This document shows, piece by piece, positions 43,699-64,000 of a stretch of 64,000 bases of DNA. How positions within the stretch are numbered: the stretch's first letter is position 1; the number at the start of each line of letters is the position of its first letter. A program made the translations under genes and the position numbers. The notes under the pieces were generated by a model, which ran no database searches, was not told the origin of the DNA, and saw nothing but the letters and a program-made list of their open reading frames with translations. The stretch covers positions 2,333,373-2,397,372 of the forward strand of contig CAJINV010000009.1 of assembly GCA_905178155.1 (NCBI GenBank). Direction: 5' to 3'. The DNA is from Amoebophrya sp. A120. Taxonomy: Eukaryota; Protista; Dinoflagellata.

Positions 43699-44253
43699 CT
43701 AATACCGTTTGAGATACCAGACCCCGAGCACCGCGATTAATGAACCCTGCGTACACATAATGTTCCAACCTTGACAGGCGTCCGCAGATTCGTTGTAACG
43801 ACGCGGCATGGTGTTGAAACCCAGAAAGTGCATCGGCAAAAACGTCATGTTGGCTCCTACACCGAAAACGACGACCTGAGGTTAGTTTTAGTTTTTTTGG
43901 CTCGCGTTCGTGTCTCTTCTGCTTCCGTGATCCGCGCAAACACTCACTAGAACAAATTGTATCTCAAATTTCCATCATGTTTTTACCCAGTAGATGTAGA
44001 TTTTGGAGGAGAGCAGGTTGTACATCGGTTGCGAGAAGTATGCATGTTGCTGATAGCCACCCTGGTTCGCGCCGGGAGCTTCATAGTTGGTGAAGAGAAA
44101 CCGTCTAGGCCCGGAAGAGCGCAAGATTGCTCCTCGGGTTGCGGCGGAGGTAGCCGTTGCAGTGCTTTTGCCTCTAAAATTCTGGAAGAAGCTCGCCCCG
44201 AGCAGCCCCTTGGGAGCAGTTTTCTCCGCCAGCCGGCGGGCAAACTGCAGCAT
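43699..44253 (-). CDS. cox1: Nuclear-encoded C-terminal fragment of cytochrome c oxidase subunit 1 (last two TM helices) with a mitochondrial-targeting-like presequence, 147 aa
   Basis: Exons 44253-43987 and 43875-43699; intron GTAAAA...CTAACCTCAG. Exon 2 reads VVVFGVGANMTFLPMHFLGFNTMPRRYNESADACQGWNIMCTQGS, matching the COX1 consensus GVNxTFFPxHFLGxxGMPRRYxDYPDAYxxWN. The N-terminus is R/K/S/A-rich and almost free of acidic residues. Exon 2 is absent from the supplied ORF track. Confidence 0.9.
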
Positions 44254-44910
44254 TTGTAGTTCCTCTCTTTCGTTTCGAAAAGTCTACAGTTGTCTCATAC
44301 GAAGAAGTAGCGGGCCAACAAGGACCCGGATTTTGATTTAAGTCCCCAAACAACTGGAGGCGTGGGAGAATCATGAAGCATTGATGTTGTACGAAGAAGG
44401 TGGTTGTAGGAATGTGTACTAGTGTGCAACGGAGCACTACCACATCAAGGGCAGTCCGTGTCCACGGCTGTACAAACAGCTTGATGATAACGCGTCACTC
44501 AGTACAACCTAGGCACCGCACGGTAAGAGCAAGAGGGAAAACGGAAAATTATAAAATAATAATGAGCGGCAGCATCACTCTATCTCTCATCGTCAATTCT
44601 GCTCGCTATTCCTGCGGGTTTCAGGCTGATGCAAGTTTTCTAGCATCTCTCGACTTGTGCTTGTCCGAAGCCGAACTCGTGAGGCTGAGATCGGAAAATA
44701 CACACCGTGCTAGTTTCATGGTAATGTATGTGCAACACACGACTTCGAGGATACGCACACGCAGCACGACACTGCTAACGCTAACCTAACCATCTTGCAC
44801 TGATTTCGCTTCTGTCGTTGTTGTTGTACTTATCTATGCTTTTGATTACACTTTTTTTGTGTCGCTCGTGTTGGCAGCTCACACCCGCCATCCCCGATCA
44901 CCAGTATCCG

Positions 44911-45279
44911 TCATTTATTTTCTCCAGCGTCAGTCGCGCATTGGTCGATGAACTCTGCGAGGGCAAAGTCTTTTTCTGATATGCCACCGCAGTCGTGGGT
45001 TGAGAGTTCAATATGCACCTGATTGTAGACGTTAAACCACTCCGGGTGATGCTGCACCTTCTCCGCCCGCAGCGCTACCTTCGACATAAAGCTCCACGCG
45101 GTTTCGAAGTCGGTGAACTGCAGCTCTCTTCGTAGACGGTCGGGTCGTTTGGTCGTGGCCTCGTCGAGAAATCGCCAATCTTTGTGGAGCAGAGATGACC
45201 CACTTAGCGCTGTCGTCACATCCTCTTTGGATATTCGAGCGGGGGGTGCCATGCGCCGAAGGGACCGGCGGAAAAACAT
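44911..45279 (-). CDS. Pterin-4-alpha-carbinolamine dehydratase (PCD/PhhB family), possibly mitochondrial
   Basis: [54 protein letters not shown] is the family signature; short basic leader MFFRRSLRR. Confidence 0.93.
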
Positions 45280-45909
45280 CTTCACTGTAGTACTGGACTA
45301 CTTGTTTGATGGTTTTGATTTTTGCTATAGGCGTCGCTCTACTTTGATATGCCACCGTGCTTTTTTGGTCCACCTCCACGACAGGCTGGCTCTCAGAAAA
45401 CAAGCAGCGCAAAGATGTTTACTTTAGGTGGCGACTGGCGTTGCCTCTTACTCAATCCCTCGATAGACAGACGCGGGCTCACATCTTTTCGCGAACTGGC
45501 ACCGTTTGGAAAAGCGACGAAACTCGGGTACTTACTAGTAACCGCGGTTCGCGTTGGTAAACGTGCCATACCGGTGCAAGAACAAGCAAAGATGAAAGTC
45601 ATCTCACATAAGCACTAAGAGGCTCGCGAGACCACTTTTTGATCTTGATAGTTTTATTTCAGCGAATAAATGATCTGCAAAAATACGTCGAAACAGAATT
45701 CTGTCCTTCTTGCTGAGTTTCTATCGGGCCCGTGTGCTGAATAATGAAGGTTCATTTCAAACAAAAAGCTCAGAAAACGCATTTCCCTCTGTATCATCTT
45801 CTTTGACTGTCTTTATTACAAGGGGAAGAGTCGTGAGGTGTTAGTTTGTTCTTGGAAAATCCAAATTCTTCCGATCATTGTAAGTAGTTGCAGTTCTGCA
45901 AAAACGCTG

Positions 45910-46713
45910 TCAGAGAAACGGACTTTGTGTGTTAGTCTGTGTTTTGCGGTCGTTCCGTACTTCGTCCTTGCGCGGTTCAAAGCTTCCTGCGCCTCCCTGT
46001 GTGATGAACTTCGCTGCGCACGCGGTTGCTGCAATTGTGAACTCGTTCATCCCGGCTGCTTGCGGTCCACCGCTCGCGCCTGCCGTTGCAGCTCCGCTAC
46101 CGCCACCAAAAAAGCTGCCGAATATTCCACCTCCACCAGCTCCACCTGCTGGCGCTCCACCGCCCGCTGGAGCAGCACCCGTTTCTTTTCCTGCGTTGCC
46201 AACGTGCACCCCGCCACCGAAGTTTAGAAGTTTCAGCAACCAATTACCTGGTAGGTAATGCAGCGAATGCAAAAGAGAGCAAAGAATAACCAGTGGTATA
46301 TCAGATTCAAAGCAGAACGTGCCCGTTTCTCGAACTGATAGATACTTAAACCTAACCTTGTTTCGGTGTAGGTGTTCAAACAAAGAAATAAAACATAGAC
46401 TTTTGATACTATCCATCGTGTCTTTAATCATCTTTGCAGCTGCTTCTGCCCGGCGCGCGGCTTCACAGCAGGCCGGTGGCTGCACAGCGCAACCCCCTGC
46501 GCCACCTCCATCCAAAGCCGCCTGGGAACCGACGCCTGGACACGCAGCTTTGGGAAGGGTAGCACCACGTCGGTAGCTGCACTGGGCGAAGGAAGTAGTG
46601 GGGAAACACGGCGTCTTTTGCGCGTGGAGCTTGAAAATCGACGGGCTGGTGCTGCTGGAGGAAAGCTCGTTCGTGAGCACGAAGTCAGGGTGCAGATGGA
46701 TAGAAAATCCCAT
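45910..46713 (-). CDS. Hypothetical G/A-rich protein; exon structure unresolved
   Basis: Open frame with a Cys-containing part and a Gly/Ala-rich part, separated by an intron-like AT-rich stretch at about 46250-46395. Confidence 0.3.
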   Translation of the reverse strand: MGFSIHLHPDFVLTNELSSSSTSPSIFKLHAQKTPCFPTTSFAQCSYRRGATLPKAACPGVGSQAALDGGGAGGCAVQPPACCEAARRAEAAAKMIKDTMDSIKSLCFISLFEHLHRNKVRFKYLSVRETGTFCFESDIPLVILCSLLHSLHYLPGNWLLKLLNFGGGVHVGNAGKETGAAPAGGGAPAGGAGGGGIFGSFFGGGSGAATAGASGGPQAAGMNEFTIAATACAAKFITQGGAGSFEPRKDEVRNDRKTQTNTQSPFL

Positions 46714-48049
46714 CTTGAGACAAGTACAACAGCGAGTAACAAGAACAACTGGAATTCGCGGCGCACTATGATTTTTATCCTCGAGATGGTCGTGGTTCTG
46801 TGATTACACGAGAAGTCGGATGAAGCTTTAGCTTTGGGATCAAAATTACGCCGTAGGTTTGCCAAGCGACTGCTCACTCTACAGATACAGATACAGAAAT
46901 TTCTTTCGCAGGGTGTGGTGGTCGGCGGTGGCCTCTTATCATGTGGCTCGATAGAACGGGGCAGGGAACGACGCAACGCTTTGCACCACGGGCACACGAA
47001 TCTGGGCAATCTTTGTTTGTCCAATCTCTAGAAATTTCTTTGTTTGTCCTACCTGCAACGAATTCTCGAGCCTATCCCCTCGACCACACAACACAAGCAT
47101 CACGACCACGACGTCTAAGTATGCGCTCGGTCGATGACGCTGAATGCAGATGAAACAGAGGAAGAAAAAACTCATGTAAAACCGTTTTCACACGAGGAGT
47201 CGCTTTCTCTCCTTCTTTGTCCACGAAAACGAAATCAGGTAGTTAGCTCTCTATTCGCGGTTCTTTCGACAATATATGCCTCCGTGTCCTAATTGCCCAT
47301 GAATTCATTGAAGAGCTTGTAGTAACTAACTGTCAGCACTGTGTGCTTTTCTGTTTTATTTTTCTTTTTTCTTGCGCATTTGCCATCTATGTTCATGTCC
47401 ATGAAAAATACACGGTAGCTTTGTTCAGTCAATGTCACTTGGTGACCAATAAATTCGTGACAAATCCTTCAAAATTTGACTGCTGGCCTCCTATTCCCAG
47501 TGTACATTCAGTCGTAAAAAGTAGCGTAGGGCAGATTCATTTTTTCAAAAACAATGCAAGAAACGACTTTGGAGGCCGCGACGGTCATTGTTGTTGATTC
47601 TGTAAATTCTTTGAATTTTTATCTGAAACTACTTAGCGAACCTGTGCAAGAAGAGTGAAAAAACTGATTCCCGAAACTTGGAACTGCTATCGCCATTGAG
47701 TCTAGTATTTGGTTTGAGTAAAAAGCTGTTCTTTTTCTGACTATAATTGGTTCAGTAATTTCCGTTGTTTGTTGAAGTTGTAACGAGTAAATTGACTTGT
47801 TCTTGTTGCAAAGTGTAGTATAGAAAGTAAAGTAGTTGTAAATCATAATTGCACAAAGCGTTGTGACTTTTTCAGTTTTAAATATTGGTAGTGATTTGGA
47901 CCAACTTTTTATCGGCCAAGAAAATCGAAAAAAAATCCGGTGGCGCGGCGAAACTGTAGAGGCCAGAGCCAACCAACCTAAGGGGGGCGATTCCCGATTC
48001 CCGAATTTTGCATTGCTCAAAATCGATTGTGCATTCCCGCAGACGCGGA

Positions 48050-48690
48050 TTGCACAAAATCGATTTTGCATGATTGCACGAAACCGAATCCCGCAAAATC
48101 GATTTTGCATTGCACAAAATCGATTTTGCATTGCACAAAATCGATTTTGCGTTGCACAAAACCGAAGCCCGATTTTGCATTGCACAAAATCGATTTTGCA
48201 TTGCACAAAACCGAATGCCGCAAAATCGATCTTGCATTGCACAAAATCGATTTTGCATTGCACAAAACCGAATGCCGCAAAATCGATCTTGCATTGCACA
48301 AAATCGATTTTGCATTGGACAAGATCGATTTTGCATTGCACAAAACCTAGTCCCGATTTTGCATTGCACAAAATAGATTTTGCATTCCCTCAGACGCGGA
48401 TTGCACAAAATCGATTTTGCATATGCACAAAACCGAATCCCGCAAAATCGATTTAGCATTGCACAAAATCGATTTTGCATTGCACAAAATCGATTTTGCA
48501 TTGCACAAAACCACATCACGGCTTTGCATTGCACAAAACCGAATCCCGCAAAATCGACTTTGCATTCCACAAAATCGATTTTGCATCGCACAGAACGCAG
48601 ATTGCACAAAATCGAATCACGGAGGCGCGGATTGCACAAAACCCCTCCTCCAGACGCGCAATCCCGCAGATTGCACAAAATCGATTTTCC
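48050..48690. repeat. 21-bp minisatellite TTGCACAAAATCGATTTTGCA
   Basis: Tandem and variant copies containing the palindrome AAAATCGATTTT; the same palindrome is dispersed across the whole 47885-50960 element. Confidence 0.92.
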
Positions 48691-49267
48691 ATTCCCCCAG
48701 AACGCAGCGCCGACCAAAAGGTCGGCTTTGTGCTGGCCACAGGTTCGCCGTTGTGGGTCGCGCAATCGCTGTCGAAGGCCACACAATCGCCCGACCACAC
48801 AAAATCGATTTCGCAGCTTCCCAGGTCCGACCGAATCGAGCGGCTGCGTGGCTCAATATCGAGGCGGCGCGCCACGCAATCCGCCGGGCCGACGGACTAG
48901 GGGGGAGAGCTTCCATCCCGCTATGCGCCTTAGCGGATCTCCCACAAAATCGATTTTGTGCGTCCGCCCTTTCTTCGCGGATGCAGTCTCCCACGCCAAT
49001 GCCTTACCAACCCCCGTCCCAGCCCGCGCCCTATGAGGTACGGGCAACGAGCCCTACCGGCCACAAAATCGATTCTGCAGCCCCTCAACCCTATGGACAA
49101 CGTCGGCACCTTGCCGGACATTCGATTTTCCGAAGAGATCTGGACTTCCGGAAAGATCTCGGGAGATCGCTGCGGTCCGGATTTTCCGACTTCCGGAAAA
49201 TAAAGCTTCCTAGAAAATAGCAGAAAATCGATGTCGTGCCTCCATTACTATTCAATAGTAGCGAGAT

Positions 49268-49677
49268 CGGACCAAACCTGGTCCATACCATCGGCGGAGG
49301 CAGTTGCTTACTATCCAGTTGGTAATCTGCTGCCAAAAATCCAAAAAAAATCCGAAGGCAGTCGCACTCGAGGTGTCGCACACAAAAATACGATTTGTTT
49401 TGTGTTGCGTCCCGAGCAAAATAGTAATTACTATTGAATAGTAACCAACTGCCTCCGCCCATGGTATGGACCAGGTTTGGTCCGTCTTCGTTACTATTGA
49501 ATAGTAACTCCTGCGCACTTTTGGCGCACACTTGGGCGCACTTTTGGCACACAGAAAATCGACTTTGGTGCGCCTCCGAATCTCTTGAAAATGCAAGCGC
49601 TCGGATTTTTGGCAGCAGATTACCAACTGGATAGTAAGCAACTGCCTCCGCCGATGGTATGGACCAGGTTTGGTCCG
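49268..49677. repeat. Perfect 75-bp inverted repeat (49268-49342 and 49603-49677) with a third partial copy at about 49448-49484
   Basis: CGGACCAAACCTGGTCCATACCATCGGCGGAGGCAGTTGCTTACTATCCAGTTGGTAATCTGCTGCCAAAAATCC and its reverse complement. Confidence 0.9.
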
Positions 49678-51264
49678 TTCTCCGTAGCAATGAAGCAGAA
49701 AAGCGATTTTCCGCCTCGGTTTTCGATTTCGAGGACTTGCTGATGTCCCGATCTCGATTTTCGATTTCGGAAAATTCCGGATTTTTCGCAAACTCCGGAT
49801 TTTTTAGAATTTCCGGAATTTCCGGAACCCGGAAAATCGATTTTTCGGCAGTCCCGGAAAGTCCAACGCGCGGACTTCCGGAACACTTGAACCTCTGGAT
49901 TTTCAGGAAGTTGGAAAATCGATTTTGCCAAGCAGCCGGACTGCCACCTACCTTGCCCACATAGCAGGCCCACCACCTCTTGTGCCCGCGCCACCACTCA
50001 CGCAGACACCGCACAAGGAGCGGGCCAGCAAAATCGATTTTGCGCGCCTCGGGTGATTGAACCCACAGACAATTCTGCGAGCCTGAAGTGACTAAAGTCC
50101 CCGACTCTGCGCCCCAAGCGCCCAGCGGCTGTCGAGGACTGAGCCGCGGCACCCACCGAGGGCTGCCTTGTTCACAAAATCGATTTTGCGACCCCCGCGC
50201 CAGCCGAGAGCCTGTTCCTGGCGCCTCTACGGAGCTCAGAACACGCAGACGGGGCCCATGCCACTCCCGCGGCTTTTCAGAACTAGGGCCCGGATGTAAA
50301 TCCACAATCTCGGGAATTCTCATTGGTTTTTACGCTGGGCCAACACGGTGAATGCGCGGAACTTCATCGGGGCGCAAGTTCTGGAATTCGCGATCATCCC
50401 TGAGCCTGTAGCGTGCGACCGAAACATCGATCCAAGGCGGGCAGAGGCCCGTCCTCTGCGACTTCGCCCCACGCAATCAATTTTGCAGCTTTTGCCGGAT
50501 TTTCCGGCATTTGTGTTGGTAAAATCGATTTGCGACCACGCGCGGATTGTGTGGCCCCGCCCGAGGATAGGGCATCTTTGAGAAGCGTACCGGAAGGGTG
50601 CGCACAAAATCGAATCTGTCCGCGAGTACTCACAAAAGCGATTTTGTGAGCACCGCCCGCCGGGCGGAATATGACAACCCGGCGTCCCCAACCCGGCTGC
50701 GGGAATCTTTCTGACAGCCCGGATGCTCCAGGGTGGGGCCTAACGCCTGAGGACACCGGCAAAAACTGCCGCGAGACCGAGTTGGCGCATTCTCGAGCTT
50801 CGAGAACGCGGGCAACCGACTTCGTTTCGCGCTACTTTGCTTCGCTTGTGGACGTTAGCAGCCGCAGCACAAAGTCGATTTTTTGCGGCGTGCCTGGATT
50901 TTTTGCGGATTTTTTTCCGATTTTCTTAACATTTTTGAAGTCGGTCCAAATCAGTACTAATAAATAGCCAGGCTTACTGCGACATTTTTTGTGCGACATT
51001 TTTTGCACTTCTGCTTTCTTTCACGGCTAACTCGGGTCGCTCAGGCTCACCCATAATTTTTATAGGGCGTCATGGTCTTTATTCTCACTGAACTGTTCCT
51101 CTTAGTGTACTTTTTTTCGGCTGCTTGTGCATCGCCTTCCCCACATCATCGAAGTAAAATTTCACCGGCACCTCCTTCCCTTGTTTTTTTTCGCTTTTTC
51201 AAGAAGCCTGCTGCTGATCTTTGTTTACTCTCCCCATTTCCGCAATTCGTGCTCAACACCTGCT

Positions 51265-53666
51265 TTAGGACGAAGCAGCATGGCCGCCCCCGGTCTCGGT
51301 GGACGACGATTTCGCCGGCTTGGGCACGCCGGCCGGAGAGGCACTCGACGACGCGGCAGTCTGGATGGTGGACACCACCGCCTTTTCGCTCTCCCCCGTG
51401 GCAGCTGGTTCTGGCTTCTTCTCCCCCTCGTCTGCCTTCGCAGCCTCCGTTTCCTTGCCACTATCCACCACATGCGAGGCGGGGACCACCGGCAACTGCA
51501 CGTCCTCCTTCTTTACGGCAGTCTGCTCCGGGGTTTTCTTTTTCTTGTACATGCCGATTTCCGTGGTGGCCCACGGCTTCAAGTAGCCGCCCGCGTCTTC
51601 CGCCTTCTCGAGCAGGTCTTTTACCTCCTCCTCCGATTCCGTACCCACGGTGGCCGCCGCGTCCTCCTGCAGCGCCGCATAGGCCGCGTCACTTGGGTAA
51701 TCGTCCTCGGTCATTCCCTCCTCCAACAGGAGCGGCGTGCCGGTGGCGTTACCCGACGCGTTACCCGCGGGTGCCGCCGTGGTGGGAGCGGCCGTGGCAG
51801 CCGCCGTCGTGGCGGCGGCTGTTGCGGCGGCCGTCGTTGGGGCGGCGGTGGTCGCGATTGTGGTCGTGGTGACGGTCGTGGTGGTGGTCGTTGTAGTGGT
51901 AGTAGTCGTGGTAGTGGTGGTTGTGGTGGTGGTCGTAGTAGTTGTGGAGGTGGTGGTCGAAGTAGTTGTGGTGGTCGAAGAGCCGCTGGCAGCCGCCAAG
52001 ATCGGACTCTGGGTCACACAGTCGGGATCGTTGCACACCTGGCATGTTGTAGTTGTGGACGAGAGCTTCCAGGCAACAAAGCTGTCGGCAGGGGATCCGG
52101 CCGTTCCCGCTCATTGCACCAAAAATTTCATATTACATTCATCCCTAGAGAGCAATGGACTCCTTTGTACTTCTTTTTTAGATCGTGTTGTATGCACAAG
52201 AAGAGAAAGAGTTTTACATGATGGCTAAACATCATTTTTTCATCTTCTACAGAAACAATCAAGCTTACGCCGTCTGGTTGGTTGTTTGCCTGCATGTTCA
52301 TAGCCGAGGTGACGTTGTTGACGATTTGCTGTGTGATAGCGGCGGGGTCCACCGTGGTTGCCGGAGGTGGTGCGTCGGTAGTTGCGGGCGGTGCGGCGGT
52401 GTATCAAATGTAAAAATGTCTGGCTCTGGAAGAATTCATGTTTGTCATGCTTGTCTGGCATGACTCTTAAATCTGTCATGCCCGTTACCCAAGAGCTCCG
52501 TTTTTCTGTGATGCAGTAGTAGTAGTAGTAGTAACCATTTGACTCCTGGCGGGTTGGCGTTAGAACAGATTTAGCCTCTGCCAATACCTGGGCGTTAGAA
52601 CAGATTTAGCCTCTGCCAATACCCCTAGGTGGATACCCGATCCACTTCCTAACTATCACCCGACCGCAACCGCAGAACCGCTATCGATTTCTTACGCGCA
52701 TGTGCGGTCAGTGGGCGCTATGTGTGGCAGAACCCCCTTACCATCCAAGCCCGCGAGCAAGGTGGAAATTCGGTGTGGCCTTGACGGGTTAGTCTTACAA
52801 ACTTGCTCGCGAGCTTACTTCTGTGGCCGGTTGTGCGCTAGTACGTAAACAGCGGGTCTATCGATCACGCCCGATGATCCTAACACGATGACGGGCAACC
52901 CCGAAGCGTACCCCTTTCAAGCACTTCAGCCGACCTTAGTCCGCGCACCTTTTTCGTGCGTTTGTCATGCAGAATAGAAGAAGTGCAGTTTGTCATGCAG
53001 AAGCGCGTCACTTTTTCGATGCAGAAGTGCAGTTTGTCATGCAGAATAGGAAACACCTAGGAGCTCAGAAACTTGTCATGCTGAGCCAGCATTTGTAGCC
53101 TCATCATGAGACGCCACCCAGCATCACAAGTTTCCAGACCCAGACATTTTTACATTTGATACGGTGGTGGTGTTGGCCATTTTCGCAATGGTGAGAATCT
53201 CGGTAATGGTGGCGGAAACCTTTTCGGCGATGGCCTCCGGTGGCCCGCTGTAACTCGCAATGTCCTGCAGTTTGTCCACCACGGCCATGCGCGTCATATC
53301 GTCCATGTTTCCAAACGCACCGGCCTGCACGGCGGCGGCAGCCGCCCCCGCGATGGTCTTCATCGTGGATGCCATGGACTGGGCCACCGCGTTCTGGGTC
53401 GCATTCGGATTGCTCGAGGCGGCAATGCCCTTGGCAATCTCCGATCCCAACCAGTCCTGCACAATCTCGAGGTCTGACTTACCGGCGTACGGATCCGGAA
53501 ACCCTTGCGAACTCCCGGTCACGGCCAGAGGATCCTAGTAGTATTTATGCCATGCATGGGTTGTCCAGCAGAAAAACATCAAGAAAAGCACCATCGTCGA
53601 GGTGACAGAATCGTTTATGACTGCGAGCAGGACTAAGCAGTACAAACAAGAAAGCAAGAGCGACAT
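51265..53666 (-). CDS. Secreted mucin-like Thr-rich protein, multi-exon
   Basis: Signal-like start MSLLLSCLYCLVLLAV. Removing 52402-53161 plus one TSD gives ANTTT-AAPPATTDAPP in frame. The last exon has a short Cys motif and a poly-Thr tract at about 51860-51980. Confidence 0.7.
52402..53161. mobile_element. Introner/MITE family B enlarged to 760 bp by a nested insertion
   Basis: tatcaaatgtaaaaatgtctggctctggaa ... ttccagacccagacatttttacatttgata. TSD CGGTG at 52397-52401 and 53162-53166. Both arms align by eye with 8923-9180. Confidence 0.92.
52517..52960 (-). mobile_element. Nested insertion of about 440 bp with a (TAC)n tail; possible 3' fragment of a non-LTR retroelement or SINE
   Basis: Absent from the sister copy at 8923-9180. 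(TAG)5 tract at 52517-52533, a 33-bp direct repeat at 52556-52588/52591-52623 and a 15-bp stem at 52747-52761/52802-52816. Confidence 0.55.
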
Positions 53667-54015
53667 ATTTCGCTAGTTCTTGTGAAGCTCCTCCTGTCAT
53701 CTCTATACCTGTTTAGTCGCCTTGCGCTTGGTATTCATCAGACTACTGTGGGTCTTTTTGCCTTGCGAGACAGCCTTTTGTGCGAGCTGATGCAGAGTAA
53801 GCAAGTGGAAGTTGGCCTTTGTCGTTTCGTCTGCATCCTTCTGTAGAGTTTTTGTAGTTTTGCTACCTTCTTACGTATGTAATCTCGTTCCTGATTTCAC
53901 TTGGGAAAACAAAAACTGAAGACGATAAAATTGCGAAGAGCGAGCGGTGAGGAGCCGAATAAATTCTTGCGGGCCACGATGATTTCAAAAAGCATCAAGA
54001 CAAAGCAGAGGAGAA

Positions 54016-54804
54016 TCACATCAGACAATCTTCTACCGGTGGTGGCCCTGCTGCCTGCAGCTCGATCGTCGCCTGTGACTCGAGCAACGAGAGATCATGG
54101 TCGTTGAGGTCGAGGTATGCATTGCAAATATGTCTGTGTCTGGAAGGATGTGAACTTGTGATGCGCATTTCACAACACACACAAATCTCTCATGCATAGG
54201 CAGTAAAAGGTGCCCACTTCCTGTCACTAAAAAGAGGGATTTGTAATGCGAGTTGGGCATTGCGGATGGTTCTCGATATCTGTGATGCTAGGGCTTCCAC
54301 GACAGACCTTTTGCGTCATGCAAAAACAGCATGACAAAAATCTGCACTCTTCCAGACCCAGACATATTTGCATTTGATACGAGGGCATCAAGCTGTGAAG
54401 ACGCAGCGTTATCGGACGACTCCGCTGGTTGTTGAGCCCCTGGCGTCAGCAGGAATGCTGTCGTGTATTTATTGTGTGTTTTTTCGACATCTGTCACGTT
54501 TTCTAGCTACGACCTCTTTGAGTAGTTATTTATGCCCGTCTTTCATTAATTTTGTTCTCGCTTGCGCTTTCTATCAATCTTCGTAGGCAGTGGTCGTATC
54601 CTCGGTGGTTTCTTTATGCGTCATGGAAACCTCCAGATGAAAACCGTTTAATATCTCTATGTGAATCAAGAAAACTAGGATGGTAGTTGCTGTACATGTT
54701 TCTATTGACTCCTTTCCATTGTCGATTCGGAGAGCTTCGGCTGTGTGTGCGGAGGACAGCGAGCAACCGAGCAGCACCCGCCTGAGCATTACTGCTTGCG
54801 GCAT
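54016..54804 (-). CDS. Small putative secreted protein interrupted by an introner
   Basis: Signal-like start MPQAVMLRRVLLGCSL. Removing 54116-54379 plus one TSD gives SSQLDAL-DLNDHDLSLLESQATIELQ...CLM*. The 5' exon junctions are unresolved. Confidence 0.5.
54116..54379. mobile_element. Introner/MITE family B, 264 bp
   Basis: tatgcattgcaaatatgtctgtgtctggaag ... cttccagacccagacatatttgcatttgata. TSD CGAGG at 54111-54115 and 54380-54384. Confidence 0.92.
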
Positions 54805-55743
54805 AGCGGTTGATGTGTAGTCGTACTCGAGGAAAGTCTGTGTGCAGTTCCGTAATCGGTGCGCGGGCCCGGGCACCGAGGGAGTGTCGATCCGCCTCCC
54901 TATCTATAGGTGGTTATTCGTACTATCGCAGTTTTGTCTTGAAAAGCCAACGGATAGCCCCTCTCTCCCGATGCTTTCCCTACCTCTAGAATGTTTCGTT
55001 TGGAAAAAATGCTATCAAAAAGGATGGACAAAAAATTCAGCCTCTGCTCATCCGACGACGGGGGTTGCAGTTGCATTCGTTCTCGTTGTAAATGCTTGAT
55101 AAATGAACTGTATAGATTGATCAGATCACATATTTTCCATGTCGCATGTGAGTGTGACGAGAGCAGCATAGCATACGTGATAGAGATATCTTAAAAAGTG
55201 GGAAAGAGAAACACAACAAACAGCGACAACAACACAGACGAAGAATATTTGTAAGAAAACGAGACCAGTGAAGACTGAAAACTGGTGTTCTACTGATATT
55301 TTTGCATAGACAACAATGTAGTTGGCGTCGGGTGCCTTTCTAATCGTCTGATGCAAATGCTCCAGATCTAAGTCTCTCATCGTTCATCTCGTCTCACAAC
55401 TCGACACACACTGGTCATGGAAGATGAAGGTTTGTTGCTTTGTAAATTTCTGCACCTGTCGCTATCACTATGACGAGTAATTTGTTGACGCTTTTAGTGT
55501 AGATAATTTGCATTTTTCTGATGAGTCAATCTCACTACGGGTGAACAACATTCAAGCGAGCGAGCGCAACCTGATTTGAAGCTTCTACTGACTTTGCCTT
55601 TGGGTGCCTCTTGGATCCAACCCAAATTTCAACTTTATACTCTATGAATGCTTAAAATATAATTTGCCCCCCCATAAACCATGTAATATTTACTAGAAAA
55701 CGGTTTCTACTCGATCTCGTTTCACCTTGCATTTGATCTTGAC

Positions 55744-56049
55744 ACACCGAGCATTTGAGTATGTGATAGTGGTTTGAAGTTGCATGATCCGAGCTTTGCA
55801 ATTGACCACACCGAGCTTTGCAATTGACTACACCGAGCTTCAACCAAAATCAAAAAGACAACGATTTGCCTTCAAGTAGAAACCGATTTGCCTTCAAGTA
55901 GAAACCGAATTACCTTGCAGAAAAACCGAATTACCTTCCAGAAAGCCGAGACTCGCCTTCAAGAAAACCACAACTTATTCGCGCAGTCAGCTTCACCGGG
56001 CTAACTGCGCGAATAGTTGTGGTTTATTACAGAACCACAACTATTCGCG
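55744..56049. repeat. Two adjacent iteron-like arrays of about 21-22 bp followed by a hairpin with 25-bp arms
   Basis: (ACA)CCGAGCTTTGCAATTGAC about 3-4 times; CGATTTGCCTTCAAGTAGAAAC twice plus about 3 variants; inverted arms AACCACAAC(T)TATTCGCGCAGT at 55966-56024, with a third arm copy at 56033-56049. Confidence 0.8.
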
Positions 56050-57217
56050 AACATCCACTATTGGCCATGAACAACGACATACAATAACGGCGAATGCGAC
56101 CGCGGATCGATCTGCGGCACTACTGTTGGAGAACAACATTATTCCATTTGTTTCCTCCTCCCTTCTACGTGTTCAATGTCAGCTGCTTCAACTTTGGTTC
56201 GAAAAAGTTTTTCGTAGTGCATGCTGCCGACCACGAGAAAAACAAATGCTCAGTGATGATGCTAAGTTCGCCTAACTTTCACATCATGTTTTTATCATGC
56301 GTCAATCTGAAATGCAGAGAGACACATGATCAACCGAAGGTGCATAACGTCCAACCTTTCTATATGTTCCTCCGCGGAGATGGAGTTCATCGTAGATGTG
56401 CAATGGACATGGAGTTCATCGTGTCTAGGAAACAATAGAAAGGTAAACCGATGGAGATGGTTTGGGACGGAGAGAAAAGAATGTTCCATACAAACACTGG
56501 CAGCGCCCAGCATACCAGTGTGAAGAGATAATATCACGATGCCCCTAAGTGCGGGGCGGACAGGTGAGTTGGGAAGCCTCTTCCCTTACAAAGAAAAATT
56601 ATTTTTTTTCAAATACGAGCTCGAAGTAGCAGTAAAAAATCAAGTAGCTACGAGAGTACGGATGTACTTTCGTAACTACCTGATACAAACAGAGATGGAC
56701 GAATAGATACGTCACAAAGTAAGACCTTGCATTTTCATAATGTAAAAATAAAATTATTTGTGTGGGAGGTGGGGCACAGATGTTGTCAAGATCGCACACC
56801 TCCCGAAAAGCAGCTGTAGGCGATGGCGATGGTGTTACATCACTCATCTATCAATTTCTATAGAAATATTTTAATTTCTAAATTCAAATTTTTTGTGAAG
56901 TCGACAGTAAAAAGCCCAGTCTCCAACACCCTGGAGATCTGGGTAAAATTGAAAGTGTTGACAACGAAAGTGATCCGCGAAGGATCACTTCCGACGTCAA
57001 ATAAAACGATGTTTTTTTTCTAAAACAAAAAATTAAAACTCTAATTTTGTAGTGCGAAACGACATCTGTGATTCCAAATTCCACTGATTGCACGGGAGCG
57101 CTATCAGTCGGAAAAATACCTCACAGTACAACCATAGAGCCCATGCTAGTTGATCAAGATCAAATATATGCAAGGACTGCGACAGCTATCGAAGAAAGAT
57201 TTTTTTTCAAATCACAT

Positions 57218-57928
57218 CTACTCCTCGTTCTCCTCGACCATCCAGAACTCATCCAAGGTGTTGCACCGGCTGCGCTTCGCGGGTTCCTCCACGACCTCAA
57301 AATCCTCCGTGGCAGCGCGCGGACGCAACGCTCCCGTGCGGGAGACCAACGGGTTGTTCACGAAGTCGACCACCGGGGGGACGTACGACGACGAAGCGGA
57401 GCTGCTGCTGCTCGCAGCGCGGGTAGAACCCGCCTTACCCTTCTTCTTGTCATTCGCGTCTTCGGCCTCGGAGGAGGTGAGCAGGTTCTTCTCCGGGTAC
57501 ATGGAGGTGAACGGGTTCTGTCCGATGTACTCGTCCATCGCGTTGATACCTTCGGCCACGGCCTTGCCGGCTTTGGCGGTAACCTTCTTCTCCTTCTTGG
57601 TCGGGTCTTCCTTGATCTCGGTCGGAAACCAGGTGGTGAAGGTGACGCCGCGGATCGTGAACGACTCCTTCGAGAAGCGGATCTGCTGGGCCGACTTGTT
57701 CGGCTTGAAGTCCATGGCGATCTCACGGGCAAACGCCGTCGCGTACTTGTGGGCCATCGGGGAGGTTTTCGAACGAAGTTCGATCGTCACCGGAATCTTG
57801 ATCGGAATCACCAACATTTTTTTCAAAACAGTGGCTTCCGCGATCCACGGCTCCCCGGACTTGAGGCTGGCGGCCGGAATGGAGGTGTTGTAGTAGTCGC
57901 GGTTCAAGTCCAAGCAGTCCGCCGGCAT
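57218..57928 (-). CDS. Intronless hypothetical protein, 236 aa
   Basis: ATG-to-stop ORF with strong GC3 bias between AT-rich flanks; no family recognised. Confidence 0.7.
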   Translation of the reverse strand: MPADCLDLNRDYYNTSIPAASLKSGEPWIAEATVLKKMLVIPIKIPVTIELRSKTSPMAHKYATAFAREIAMDFKPNKSAQQIRFSKESFTIRGVTFTTWFPTEIKEDPTKKEKKVTAKAGKAVAEGINAMDEYIGQNPFTSMYPEKNLLTSSEAEDANDKKKGKAGSTRAASSSSSASSSYVPPVVDFVNNPLVSRTGALRPRAATEDFEVVEEPAKRSRCNTLDEFWMVEENEE

Positions 57929-58279
57929 CTGTGGTTTTTAGTTTGTATGTGTGTGAAAATGATCGAAAAGAAGCCCTTGAAATGATAGTAGATAGATGTA
58001 GTTTCTTGCTGTTGTTTGGGGTAGCGACTTAGACTCAGCACCACGACACAACAGGCGAAGGGCGAAATAGTGGTAGTGCGAAGCGGTCCCATATAAACTG
58101 TTTCACTGGCATTTAAAATAGAGTCTGAGCCAAGATTGTCTTTAGTCAGTGCGAGCACAGCTTCGCAGCCGTAACGCACTGACTCTGAAAAGCGGGCCGC
58201 ATCATGGTAACGCTATAAAGCAACACTCTTTTGTGCATGAACAAGCTGCACTTCGCCCTGAAAGTGCTGAGTAAGAAAA

Positions 58280-60089
58280 CTATTGAGCCTTGAATTCGTG
58301 GAAGAGAGGCGGAAGACCCCATCTTCGGATTTCGACTGGCATCCACCTTACGAACAACCATTCACGAAATTCTGGCGGAGCAAGATCAAGACTCCAAACA
58401 AATTCAGGATGTACGTCCAGCTGGGTGATCTTCTGGAACAGGACCAAGGCGAACCAGCGGCCACTCTCCGCACCCTTCAACGCGTCCTGCAGGACCTTGA
58501 GGTTGTCGCTGTAGCGGTCTTCGATCTTCATCATCGCCTTGACATGGTTCTCCTTCATCTCGACGATCTGGCGGCTGGCCTCCGCGGTCTCATTGATGCT
58601 GATCTGTAGTGCAATTTTGCGGACTGCAATTGATCTGGAACATGAGTTTGAACTTGAAAAAAAATGCTGGCATTGATGCATAATAATAATGCAGCGCTGC
58701 AATACGAACTCATGCGCATGGTACTAAAATATATGAGTGCATAAAAATTTGCTACTGCGTGGTACTAAAGTATCTGACTGCATGGCGCCAAAGTATATGA
58801 CTGCAGTGTCGATGTTGAAGTTGTAGTTGACCTTTAAACTGAAGGAGTAGATGGTGTTGATATGTAGCAATAATACCTTGGCTTTCTTGCGCTCCTTCGC
58901 GGCCGCCTCGATGGACTTCGACAGCGCGTGTCCTTCCTCCTTCTGCTGGCGATTCAGGGCGGCTTTTTCTTCCTTGTAGCGGGTGGTGAGTTCTTTCATC
59001 GAGTCCTTCAAAGCTTTGACTTCCGGGCTGCTGGTCTTCCCTTTGATCTGGGCGCACTGACCGTCGAGCTTTCCGATCTTCGGATCCTTCTTATCCACAT
59101 CAATCTTCACCTGGGTTCCCTCGCCGAACGCCGGCAAAGAGGTATCAAACACGTCGGCAAACCGCACCACAATAGTCCCCGGCATCTCCCCGCAGATGAA
59201 GACGATGGTGAACTTGAACTGGCTCTCCAACTCTTTCAACACCGCGTTCTCTTCCTTCAGCTCCTTGCTGCGGGCACCGAAGCTCCAGTCGACGTTGCAG
59301 ATCAAAAACGCTTCAGCGGGGGTCTTGGCGCACACGTAGTCACCGACCTTGGCGCCCTTGGTCTGTGATATACGTTTACGTTTAGATTGCAGCGCCAGTT
59401 GTCGTTGATACTAAAACGACAGCTACATCAACATCAACATCATCATCAACATCTTCAAGCGGAATGGCGGGCGACATTCGTTTCACTCTTGGACGCGCAC
59501 GCGCGATCATCTTTATCTTTGAGTTTGACTTTGACGTCGACATTGATAAAGATGATAGTGCGAAACCGAAAACGAATTACATGATCTATGGCCGTGTCGC
59601 CTTTCGCTTCCGCTTGAAGTTGAAGCATTGCCCCATTGTTATTGTAAAAAAGAAATGTAGATAATGATAAAGATAATGATAAAGATATACCTCCCAGGTG
59701 ACAGCACCGCGATCGATCATCATGTCTTCGCCATCATCGGAGGAGCTCGACTCCGGGTCGTCCTGGGCCGCGGGCGCCTTGATCGCCAGCTGGGTCTTTT
59801 TCTTCTTTTCATCCTTTTCCTTATCTTCCTTCTTCTTCTTCGCAGGCTTAGAGGCGTTGCGGATCACTTCGCTGATGAGGTAGGCCAAAAATCTGTTCTT
59901 GTCCGAATCCGCAGGCTCCGAGCGGATATAATTATCGCGGACTAACGATTTTACCTCACGCATTTGTTGCAAACTCATTCCCACTCCTCCTTTGCCGAGC
60001 AACGTATGAAAGATCGTTGCCAGGGTCAAGCAACGATGCGACGGCTTCGCGTACTTCAAACCCAAGTTGAACAGGCGGGTCCTGTTCAT
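58280..60089 (-). CDS. Lys-rich coiled-coil hypothetical protein, three exons, about 402 aa
   Basis: Exons 60089-59691, 59362-58877 and 58603-58280 are each a multiple of three and bounded by GT-AG (GAG|GTATAT..ACAG|ACC; AAG|GTATTA..ACAG|ATC). The first junction is the least certain. Confidence 0.6.
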
Positions 60090-60772
60090 ATTTTTGAATT
60101 GAAATAAGAATAAATGTTTGCAGAACCAGAACGAGAGCCAGAAGATGAAGAAGAAGTGCAAGTAGTAGTAGGTGAGTACAGCTGAGTTGTTGACGCAGTA
60201 TGTATTCATATGACAACGAGAGTGCCCATCTTCAGTGCTAGAGTTCTCAAGGTGGAGGCGCGCGCCCTGCGGACGCAGAGTGCAACGCACACCGAGGCAC
60301 ATCACAAGACTTTCCTACAGCTCCTGATCACTAGCGTTCGTTACAGCCTCCTTGCGAAAATATTCAACAGCGAGTAGTGTTGTGTACTACATCGCAGCGT
60401 GGCCGGAGCCACGGTCGCAGCGTGGTAATAACTCCAATTCGCAAAAACTTCACAGGCCGCTACAACTACATTTAGAAATAGAAAATCTTGCTCTTAGCAT
60501 GCAAAGCAGAAGGCGATAGCACCAGCATTGAGCACATAAGTGCACGCATGTTTTCCGTACAAGTTAGCTCGCATTTTTTACCTAAGTAGAACGCTCACTT
60601 TGCGATTTTGTCTCCAACTCTACACGCCGAGTAGTGCATGTAGATGTAGTTTTCGACGACGAGGTAGTTGCGTATGTAGTACGAGTAGCTCTAAACGTCG
60701 ACGTGGTGAACGAAGGTGAAAGCAAAGGTGACCTTAGTACAAGATATACAGTAAATAGAAAACAAGATATAC

Positions 60773-63322
60773 TTGAACAGCGACACGTAGCGGGGGTCGT
60801 CGCGCGTGGTCCCCTTTTCCTTGATCACGGTGATCCAGTAGTCCGGCACCAGGCCAATCTCGCGCAGAATTTGATGGCAGACGTTGATCTCCATGACGGA
60901 CACGATGTTTTCGCACATGCGCTGTATTGTGTTTTATTTTTTTATCGTCCAAGAATTCTATTGCAGTCGAAGTCGTACTCGTAGTATGCGCGACACATGA
61001 ACACGCTCTGCTTATTTTCATTGACGATTTAGCATGCAACACCAACAGCAACTGCAACGAAAAATACAAATATAAATTTATCTACCTGGTAGAAGTCCAG
61101 GATGTTGATCTTCTCATGCGGGTGCTTGCGTTTGTAGTCCTCCAATTCGGCAGCAATCTGAAGTAGTGGCTGATGATCCGTTGTTTTATGCAATTCAATA
61201 TCACACCTGCGGCAGAATCTGAACTTGCCCTCAGCATCACATCTGCGTTTGAAATTCTAAAATCAGGACGGGACCCGGACCCGACCCTGGCCCAGACCCC
61301 AACAGATCAACATGGTGAAGTCCGCCCAGAAGCCAACGAAGTCCAAGTACCAGCGCACGGGTGGCAAAGGGCACTTTCGGAAACATACCGCGAAGAAGCA
61401 GTCGAACCGAAAGGCCGTGGCCATCTGCAGCTCCCCAAAACAGGCAGCACGAAAAGCGCCTGCAAAACAAGCACCACCGAAAGCGGTGGCGAAAAACAGT
61501 GCGAAAGATCTGGACTTAGATGATGGCGAGGAGAAGAGCGGCTCGCTGGCGATGCCAGACTGCATCGCGTTTGGGGATGCGCTTGCAGAGAGCAGTGGTC
61601 GAAAGCGGGACGCTGGCAATTTCTACAAACTTGGTTGGTTATTGGCCACTATGACCGGACGGCGCGGAATGGACATTCGCCTTCTTCAGCGCGGCGATCT
61701 GTCGCTAACGAGCGTCCGAGTGGGGAACTCGAAGCTCGCTATCAACAAGGGCGGCCGCGGGAAACTAAAAAACGTCCCGATAGATCCACTGCCCAAGACG
61801 AAAAAATTCCTGCAGAGCATGATAGACTACATGGACTCGGCCGGATATAAAAAAACCGACGCAGTGTTTAGCTTCGGCTACGAAGCGTTTGAAAAGAAGG
61901 CGCGGGAGGTGCGCAAGGACTTCGTGCCGAAACACAAGAAGTCGTGCCCCGCCCACATCATCACGTCCCACACACCAAGGCGCAGCTTGTGCACCCACCT
62001 ACATGCGGCCGGCACAAGCCTGCGCACGATCATGGCCATGACGGGGCACTGCAGCGTCGATACGCTGCATCGCTATAATGAAGGAGATTTTACATACCAG
62101 CGTCTTGCGGCGACAAAGGTGAAATGCTAGCACCGAGGCCGACGCGACCCTTTTACTGCGAACCCGCCCTCGACAGCGACGACGACAATGTCGACGGTCG
62201 CTGCGGACATGCAAGGCATAACAGATGTGACGCTGCGTGGGCGATCAGTCCACCTTGCTCGTGCGAGGTGGACTAAACGTTCAGTTTCACTTTCACACTC
62301 ATGCTGATATATGTGGTAGTATGCAAAACTTTTCAACCGCAAGAACAAGTCCAAGTACAAGCTCGAGCACAACAACAACTACGACTAGATGCACACTTAC
62401 AAAGCCAAAATTTAAAAAAATACCTGCTCCATGATTCCTTGCAGTTTTTCACAGAAGGCTGTTTTTAATGTCGTGTTTGCTTCGTTATCTAAACGAATCC
62501 ACAACGATAATAACGAAGGAAGTTTCGTCATTAAATCGTTGTGGAAAATGAAGGCCCTGGAGAGATTTTTATTTTTTGTTTTTCATTTGTGAAGAGCTAC
62601 ATGCGGATTTGTATGAGAGTAAGTTTGTAAATGTAATTGTATCTCGAGAGAAGGTATTGGTATGATGTCACACGAGACGAATGCAAGCATGAGTGGGTGA
62701 AAGTTGAAAATAATAATGGAGAGCATCATGAAGATAAACATAGACATGAGCATGGTTATTGAAGCACAAATTTTAATCACACAATGGCACCTGAATCCGA
62801 GTTCCTTCCAGCGATTCTCACCGTGGGACTCGAAGTACATCAATCCGGCTTGCCAACTATGATTGAGGCCGACCACTTCGAAAGCGTCGCCATTGTCCAC
62901 GAGGAACATGAATCTCCTCATTACATAATTCCCGCGACACATTTCGCGATATAAAAACTCGCGGTGGCGGGTCGACCTCAGCCGGTTAAACGACGACTCT
63001 TTGATCTTGGGCATCATGCTCTTGCTCACCAGCGCACCGGGCTCGTACTTGTCCGAACGGAAGCGATCGACGAACGTCATCATCTCGTTCTTGGAGACCT
63101 GAAGTTGTAGATTTTTTCTGAAATTACATGAGAAAAATCTGATAAGCATGATGAGTTCTACACTGTTGCATCACGAAAAACACATCCATACAGAAGGGAA
63201 AAAGTACTAATGTATCGCACCTGTCCCTGCTGCCAACGGCCAACGATCATCTTGACTTCCTCCTCAGTCGGCATGTTCAAGGCCTCAGCAAGTTGGCCCT
63301 GAACGGCGGCTCCGAACTGCAT
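60773..63322 (-). CDS. Multi-exon hypothetical protein whose third intron contains the recombinase gene; 3' end unresolved
   Basis: Exons 63322-63221, 63098-62791, 62556-62424, 61157-61086 and 60921-about 60773 are all GT-AG bounded and phase-compatible (0,2,0,0): ...WQQGQ|VSKNEMM...ELGFR|AFIFHND...LQGIMEQ|IAAELEDYK...LDFYQ|RMCENIV... Confidence 0.55.
61312..62130 (+). CDS. Tyrosine recombinase (XerC/D / phage-integrase-like catalytic domain) with a basic N-terminal tail, 272 aa, intronless
   Basis: Full catalytic set: R (LLATMTGRRGMDIRLL), K (AINKGG), HxxR (SHTPRRSLCTHL), H (AMTGH) and Y (DTLHRY). The box II region parallels XerD PHxLRHxFATHL..G.DLRxVQxLLGH....TQIY. Confidence 0.92.
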   Translation: MVKSAQKPTKSKYQRTGGKGHFRKHTAKKQSNRKAVAICSSPKQAARKAPAKQAPPKAVAKNSAKDLDLDDGEEKSGSLAMPDCIAFGDALAESSGRKRDAGNFYKLGWLLATMTGRRGMDIRLLQRGDLSLTSVRVGNSKLAINKGGRGKLKNVPIDPLPKTKKFLQSMIDYMDSAGYKKTDAVFSFGYEAFEKKAREVRKDFVPKHKKSCPAHIITSHTPRRSLCTHLHAAGTSLRTIMAMTGHCSVDTLHRYNEGDFTYQRLAATKVKC

Positions 63323-63465
63323 TTTCACACAAACTTCTGAAGAAAACTACGAAGAAACACTGTCGCTCCTACGGAATTTTTGCTGAAATATTGATGATTT
63401 GTCGCTGCGTTTGACATGAAATTCATGGAAAATTGACAGAAATTCACAACCTCCAAAATCCCCGC

Positions 63466-63596
63466 TCTGGAATAATTCAAGGATCTGAGCTCAAAAACCA
63501 TGGCTTTTCATGAAAATTCCAGGAATTCATCATTAATTTTGCGAATATTTGCCAAAAGTGATGGCTTTTGAGCTCAGATCATGGAATTATTCCAGA
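63466..63596. repeat. 43-bp imperfect inverted repeat upstream of the 63322 gene
   Basis: TCTGGAATAATTCAAGGATCTGAGCTCAAAAACCATGGCTTTT versus the reverse complement TCTGGAATAATTCCATGATCTGAGCTCAAAAGCCATCACTTTT (5 mismatches); no TSD. Confidence 0.8.
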
Positions 63597-64000
63597 ACGA
63601 TGATTTTCGGGATCATGCATTTCAAGCAAAAAATGATGAAAAGCGAAGCAAAAAGTAATGAAGTCGCGCGTAGATTTTTGCTGATCACAGGTTGAAACTT
63701 CATGTATTTGCGTTGTATTTTGCTGGAGGATCTACTGCGAATTCTCTTGGAAATGATGTCTGTTGAGGGGAAAGTTGGCATATGGGGGAACGGTTACAGT
63801 CTCCAGTCGAAGAGTACATGGAAGGGAGCTGGTGTATGGAAATGGATATCGCACAACGAAAATATCAGTGACCGAGTTGCGGAATGGATCGAATACGACC
63901 GAGGACAAAGTGCTTGACTACCTGAAGACGCCTCTTGTATTGCGCGCATTTTCTCACTCATCGCACTTCTCCGCTGCTACGCTTTTTCACTTTCTCCTCA

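Follow-up and report, generated by a model that had tools for sequence, protein, structure and literature searches.

An uninterrupted forward-strand ORF of 272 residues, at positions 61312..62130 of the window (the 64,000-nucleotide stretch of Amoebophrya sp. A120 DNA that was analyzed here), encodes P0001, a predicted tyrosine recombinase consisting of the catalytic domain only (PF00589). The protein begins with a basic, low-complexity tail (residues 1-65; 61312..61506, forward strand) that is predicted to be disordered and is not alignable across the family, and continues with an acidic linker (residues 66-75; 61507..61536, forward strand) and the catalytic domain with its C-terminal helix (61537..62127, forward strand). 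Pfam places a phage integrase match above the cut-off at residues 129-258 (E 1.6e-9). In an alignment of 11 sequences (A3), conservation at R118, K141, H220, R223, H246 and Y255 is complete or at least 90%, and P0001 has the whole RKHRH pentad and the nucleophilic tyrosine that characterise the tyrosine recombinase superfamily, with conservation marking K141 as the putative catalytic lysine. AlphaFold2, supplied with an alignment of 14 rows, predicts that residues 81-270 are folded and that residues 1-70 are disordered; pLDDT is 94-98 per 10-residue block over residues 81-240, with one block at 90, and averages 40-52 per block over residues 1-70. Structural alignment of model residues 75-272 with XerA residues 101-281 gives a Z-score of 15.5 (rmsd 3.6, 169 aligned), and the same part of the model also maps onto Cre 132-340 and lambda Int 176-356, which are catalytic domains only. 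XerA, XerH, IntI4 and Cre give the highest-scoring structural matches (Z 14-15.5), with topoisomerase IB lower (Z 10-11), and the isolated catalytic domain of HP1 integrase is the top Foldseek match. On the basis of active-site residues and modeled catalytic fold, P0001 is a predicted member of the tyrosine recombinase superfamily. NCBIfam scores are 18-30 bits, far under the cut-offs of 220-335, and the predicted homodimer scores 0.31 against a mark of 0.32.

A preliminary description of this DNA claimed that the catalytic domain follows the tail almost directly, with no core-binding (CB) domain in between, and this claim is borne out by AlphaFold2, structural alignment, Pfam and a CB profile. 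The structure prediction that it proposed as a check yields a folded part, residues 75-272, that aligns to catalytic domains alone. A CB-domain profile built from nine Xer-like matches, which recovered two Xer/Int controls at E-values of 1e-19 and 6e-7, finds no match in the six frames of the window or in the family proteins given to it (best E 0.8), and the same search detects no separate CB-like partner, such as MpsB, in the window. Pfam likewise finds no CB-type domain in any of the 13 relatives scanned; PF00589 is the only domain found (P0012 gave nothing), the lone extra signal being one sub-threshold FLYWCH match. An in-frame AG lies 6 nt 5' of the ATG and makes an upstream exon formally possible, yet the window has no CB-like frame. 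Absence of the CB domain is thus confirmed throughout the P0001 family, which includes eight paralogues in Amoebophrya AT5.2, and P0001, having no CB domain, lies outside the 'simple' (CB plus catalytic) tyrosine recombinases. In its available text, PMC8138268 treats CB and catalytic domains as common to all tyrosine recombinases. P0001 has the catalytic fold and RKHRH+Y active site of XerA/XerC/XerD/XerH and Cre as described there, but where the Xer proteins and Cre combine a CB with a catalytic domain, P0001 has a variable basic tail and an acidic linker (PMC8138268, available text). The short CB-less build is probably not unique, because the nearest Atlas look-alikes of P0001 are clusters of short tyrosine recombinases (177-217 aa) from viruses and archaea. 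Short repeats of the GGACCC type occupy positions 61266-61300, directly 5' of the ATG; transcript ORF P0034 is likewise Pro/Thr/Gly-rich in its upstream part, and the two might have a leader in common.

Our searches identified 27 representatives in all, with E-values of up to 1e-10 for the top eight. The proteome of Amoebophrya sp. AT5.2 contributes eight paralogues to the relatives and the others are environmental, with one environmental cluster including an MMETSP transcript ORF. The five closest relatives, at 52-57% identity, form one clade with P0001 in a quick tree (SH-aLRT 97), in which P0009 and P0012 make up one subfamily (SH-aLRT 99) and P0020, P0021 and P0023 also fall inside the family, beyond the 17 rows first labelled. 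Although the paralogues are diverged (33-57% identity), the active site is kept. Family proteins are 160-380 aa long and have N-terminal extensions of 1-137 aa, which are 12 aa or shorter in 7 of the 19 proteins measured, P0001 counted; gene-called starts may be wrong in this count, and the tail-less relatives may be gene-calling artefacts. The acidic linker is kept in most of the family, several tail-less members included. In P0010 the catalytic domain is interrupted after its first helix by about 100 basic residues, which the sister protein P0013 is without. As judged from these sequences, it is the acidic linker and the catalytic domain that are conserved in the family, while the tail keeps its charge but not its sequence, length or position. 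Neither a profile search nor a search with P0012 returned a further member. Scans of IMG/VR (43 loci) and of metagenomes (2) gave only full-length bacterial- or phage-type integrases of 274-454 aa; no close relative of P0001 is present in IMG/VR, and annotated phages gave no match. No description of the family was found in the available main texts on Amoebophrya recombinases and integrases, and the word 'recombinase' occurs 0 times in the main text of PMC7789003. The CB-less recombinase family appears to be undescribed and probably belongs to mobile elements. The AT5.2 gene identifiers of P0007 (g19144) and P0011 (g19149) are five gene numbers apart, which suggests clustered copies.

The recombinase gene is surrounded by a variant-rich block of short orphan ORFs (56048..64000) that is open at the window end and is a candidate mobile element. 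At the left edge of this block, 5.3 kb from the gene, lies a perfect inverted repeat with 17-bp arms and an asymmetric spacer of 8 bp (56008..56049); of the 11 perfect hairpins that the window contains at arm lengths of at least 10 bp and loops of up to 15, it is the longest. This 17-8-17 palindrome resembles a Cre/Flp-type site, the layout of loxP being 13-8-13. Its position makes it a candidate recombination site and a possible target of P0001, and position likewise points to the block from about 56050 onward as the mobile element. Tyrosine recombinases act at inverted repeats, often near their own gene (bioRxiv 10.1101/2023.10.16.562556, available text). A second pair of arms, longer and imperfect and with an 8-nt loop, occupies 55965..56025 (z -7.7, with 0 of 200 shuffles as good), the middle arm being common to both pairs. 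In addition, a repeat of about 405 bp (55643..56047), which is also found elsewhere in the genome, ends inside the palindrome and may be a terminal repeat; contigs fork or come to loose ends at 55643 and 56047. One arm of the palindrome has two viral matches; neither has the second arm nearby, and both are regarded as chance.

The other block ORFs scanned have no Pfam match at E 0.01, and their best PHROGs match is at E 0.024. Rfam gives no matches in 55-64 kb, the ORF at 57221-57928 has no usable Atlas match, and a single-sequence fold of the neighbouring ORF at 58727-59335 has a pLDDT of 36. No capsid, A32 ATPase, pPolB, helicase or Rep gene is recognised in the 8 kb of the block, which runs off the window; within the same bounds, neither a second end of the element nor an empty site nor an element core gene turns up. 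DIRS/Ngaro elements carry RT/RNase H beside the YR, and Crypton is a YR-only element. Pfam finds no RT match in 56-64 kb, the right end of the block lying beyond the window, and recognises no conjugation genes near the recombinase. Polinton-like virus YRs, including that of the dinoflagellate OmPLV (PMC12721341, PMC10120064, bioRxiv 10.1101/2023.10.16.562556; available texts), are likewise found in protist genomes among small, closely packed genes, where an inverted repeat marks the edge. The block differs in that no capsid, A32 ATPase, pPolB or helicase gene is recognised in its 8 kb and no close relative is present in IMG/VR; a Polinton-like virus would have capsid, A32 ATPase and replication genes bounded by terminal inverted repeats. 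A long imperfect palindrome with 92-nt arms that are 74% complementary and a 1-nt loop is present in the block at 63439-63623.

Sequencing runs, the small-share runs X3 and X4 being left out of the evidence, indicate how the block varies. Six pieces of DNA run X2 in 44001-55672 match the window with 0 differences, whereas two pieces in 56018-64000 show 10 and 30. Run X1 belongs to the same sample; over 56-64 kb it carries 32 substitutions, of which 24 are transitions, together with a 4-nt duplication in the acidic linker that shifts the frame and severs the tail from the domain; X2 is without a gap there. X1 and X2 are possibly the window's own source, in which case they record variation within one culture rather than giving independent support. 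The block and its flanks have similar contig depth, which is not a measure of copy number. Private changes in both alleles, that of the window and that of X1, hint at relaxed selection on the recombinase gene. Residue 256, which adjoins the catalytic tyrosine (window position 62078), is Asn in the window and Ile in X1 and the closest relatives. Spliced contigs of X9 and X10, which come from one sample and are RNA by our guess, match host genes in 44-56 kb; among the pieces of these runs that were listed, none falls on the recombinase bar an 18-nt chance match, a hole that proves nothing. RNA runs X6 and X7 have 0 reads on 56-64 kb, the organism's presence in those runs not being established. 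Outside the block, a 3-kb intron (47880-50963) that is spliced out in X9 and X10 contigs has inverted repeats at its ends (47883-47939 and 50906-50962) and an internal palindromic satellite, and is introner-like; together with the AT5.2 and environmental relatives, this intron suggests an Amoebophrya-like host. At 52400-54380, short inverted-repeat ends that reach very high copy number in X2 flank host exons and are likely introner termini.

We consider, with a probability of roughly 0.6, that P0001 is a catalytic-domain-only recombinase, which likely serves a mobile element as integrase or resolvase, and that its tail likely provides a non-specific grip on DNA and nuclear import rather than mimicking histone H3. 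Eight paralogues in one proteome, the variant-rich block, the frameshifted allele and the palindrome at the block edge make the mobile-element context likely. By established tyrosine-recombinase chemistry, the arms of an inverted repeat would be bound by the catalytic domains, with R118, K141, H220, R223 and H246 activating the phosphate and Y255 forming the 3'-phosphotyrosine, and strand exchange would proceed across the spacer. The basic tail would make up the affinity lost with the CB clamp and may act as an NLS, and the acidic linker may tune the basic tail. P0001 would integrate, excise or resolve the block. A eukaryotic family whose catalytic cores of about 200 residues keep their active site intact, together with a candidate 17-8-17 site, makes clamp-free recombination testable. 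If recombination does work without the clamp, P0001 would offer genome engineering a very compact enzyme, and its gene would be a candidate for mobility in a lineage for which only two putative transposases, both in one strain, are reported in the available text of PMC7789003. The rival readings that we have weighed are not all mutually exclusive.

Some of these concern the tail. Residues 1-75 are 27% K+R and 16% A and have a net charge of +14, which agrees with the preliminary description of the first 70 or so residues as K/R/A/P-rich, and both of the peptides that it quoted are present, at residues 15-29 and 43-51. Pfam gives no match to the tail at E up to 1, and a sequence search of the PDB gives none at E up to 10. 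An in-frame 27-nt tandem duplication (61436..61489, forward strand; 74% identical, codon-shuffle p 0.008) supplies the KQAARKAPA unit and its neighbour. The fallback proposal of a non-specific DNA-binding or NLS tail is supported by the family tails, which keep charge and not sequence. It is nevertheless conceivable, if unlikely, that TGGKG plus an aromatic residue is an old family motif with a job of its own, as a minor-groove arm or docking peptide, which certain branches retain and others have lost and which resembles H3 by coincidence. The identical 5-mer is found in P0001 (residues 16-20; 61357..61371, forward strand) and in the distant relatives P0009 and P0012, with Phe within 3 residues after each, and a second 5-mer, HTAKK, is common to P0001 and P0009 (p 0.001). 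TGGKG, however, lies about 55 residues before the domain in P0001 and much nearer to it, at about 20, in P0009 and P0012, and TGGKG and HTAKK come in opposite order in P0001 and P0009. Moreover, the motif is missing in the nearest relatives, is disordered in the model and amounts to a single independent recurrence.

We are similarly doubtful that P0001 is a nicking or hairpin-processing enzyme, relaxase-like or a resolvase of replicated ends, which acts at the double palindrome to start or finish replication of the element. The CB-less cases in the literature consulted are bacterial relaxases (PMC9299015, PMC6414798; available texts): MpsA, TcpM and MobK are tyrosine-recombinase-like proteins that work as relaxases and, like P0001, are without a core DNA-binding domain. 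The three arms at 55965-56049 would also permit alternative hairpins. On the other hand, P0001 keeps the full RKHRH+Y set and the C-terminal helix, its model fits the Xer, IntI4 and Cre structures better than topoisomerase IB, and a helicase or Rep gene is among those not recognised in the block. P0001 also differs from MpsA, TcpM and MobK in its eukaryotic host and in having no conjugation context or MpsB-like partner in the window.

Alternatively, P0001 could belong to a domesticated host family like Pf-Int of Plasmodium, with the block being ordinary fast-evolving host DNA. This idea, which we regard as quite improbable, draws on the active site retained by paralogues at 33-57% identity, on the GC3 of the recombinase gene (0.68, inside the host range of 0.67-0.79), on the block depth near that of the flanks, and on the precedent of Pf-Int as a host-encoded tyrosine recombinase in an alveolate nuclear genome (PMC3466309, available text). 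It is at odds with the frameshifted allele in one run, the many paralogues and orphan neighbours, and the sharp change of variant density at the palindrome. In addition, Pf-Int is a protein of about 57 kDa with an alpha-helical N-terminal bundle and is conserved across Plasmodium (PMC3466309, available text), whereas the P0001 family is CB-less and multi-copy, has lengths of 160-380 aa and is without that bundle.

The preliminary description also proposed that the tail contains H3-like words in H3 order, in the K14 and K27 contexts, and offered histone mimicry for chromatin targeting or regulation as one inference, with chance resemblance considered possible. H3 sequences were obtained from 19 viral loci, and residues 1-40 of three of them served as targets. 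The P0001 tail beats its own shuffles against H3, with p 0.002-0.008 under strict gap settings, 0.008-0.028 with block shuffles and 0.025-0.065 under lenient gap settings, a modest likeness. The best alignment departs from the proposed order and places tail residues 43-65 on H3 K4-R26 (9-10 of 23 identical), and the lysines of the proposed K14-then-K27 register are 29 apart in the tail versus 13 in H3. Most of that best match is covered by the 27-nt duplication. The tail motifs are TGGKG and ARKA where H3 has TGGKA and ARKS, and ungapped comparisons of two hand-set blocks give 5/14 and 5/9 identities. None of 55 natural lysine-rich segments scores as high against H3; these controls (120 loci giving 101 segments, 86 non-redundant and 55 after a composition filter) are imperfect, all being seeded by one lysine-proline motif and taken from viral contigs. 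Likewise, none of 61 decoy basic peptide targets fits the P0001 tail as well as H3 does. A z of 3.5 is not rare when many targets are tried, however, because seven of eight other tails reach z 3.2-4.9 against some decoy, and the p of about 0.005 is weak, being a post-hoc value for a case that was singled out by eye in a scan of the whole genome.

The five closest relatives of P0001 have basic tails without H3 likeness (strict p 0.06-0.86), and across the family without P0001, 17 of the 61 decoys score as high as H3, compared with 4 of 61 when P0001 is included. The proposed check, that the motifs be kept in homologues beyond composition, gave a divided answer: TGGK, which the preliminary description had named beforehand, occurs in 2 of 8 other tails versus 0.05 expected, both in one subfamily (P0009 and P0012), a recurrence that still speaks for mimicry, but ARK occurs in 1 of 8 with 0.77 expected, and the two in order in 0 of 8. 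P0012 is colinear, without gaps, with H3 5-34 (strict p 0.004-0.006 against two of the H3 targets and 0.14 against the third), and H3-like pieces fall in different H3 registers in different proteins. A real capture of the H3 tail, L055, scores 106, compared with 45-50 for the P0001 tail. The H3-like appearance likely comes from lysine/alanine-rich composition and a local 27-nt duplication, noticed after the fact.

These results go against the proposed mimicry, the likeness being missing in the closest relatives and H3 doing no better than decoys across the family without P0001. We think it very unlikely that host enzymes modify the tail, or readers bind it, as a functioning H3 mimic or the decayed remnant of a captured H3 tail, and so steer or regulate the recombinase on chromatin. 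Histone mimics such as G9a (ARKT), influenza NS1 (ARSK) and H3TMs (PMC6028506, PMC8166343; available texts) are likewise short H3-like words in disordered regions, but P0001 has ARKA (residues 46-49) and not ARK(S/T), begins with M-V-K-S-A and not with the H3TM start iM-Z-R-X-K, and has closest relatives without the likeness. According to the available text of PMC4751559, K9 is missing from all three assembled Amoebophrya H3 variants, dinoflagellate transcriptomes yielded no clear HP1 homologue, and dinoflagellate K27 is usually without S28, which matches ARKA. The tail itself fits the K4-K9 context best. The probability of mimicry is lowered rather than dismissed because lineage-limited mimics exist: according to the available text of PMC6028506, they can be 4-residue, single-lineage motifs, as in NS1 of H3N2. 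Mimicry would be the more consequential reading, but most of the evidence speaks against it. Less probable still is the combined proposal that the block represents a eukaryotic mobile element of an undescribed class, with a clamp-less recombinase at a lox-like 17-8-17 site and a drifting captured H3 tail that is marked or read like a nucleosome and so finds the scarce nucleosomal DNA of the dinoflagellate nucleus.

The viral loci that supplied H3 sequences have features of their own. On L046-L064, 17 of 19 viral contigs encode a full-length, near-canonical H3 that is variable at 27-33, and one more is cut by the contig end; these may be giant-virus genes or host contamination. On L055, a contig of a giant-virus MAG in IMG/VR, a plus-strand ORF at about 601 encodes 145 aa, in which a near-exact H3 tail of about 21 residues is followed by non-histone sequence.
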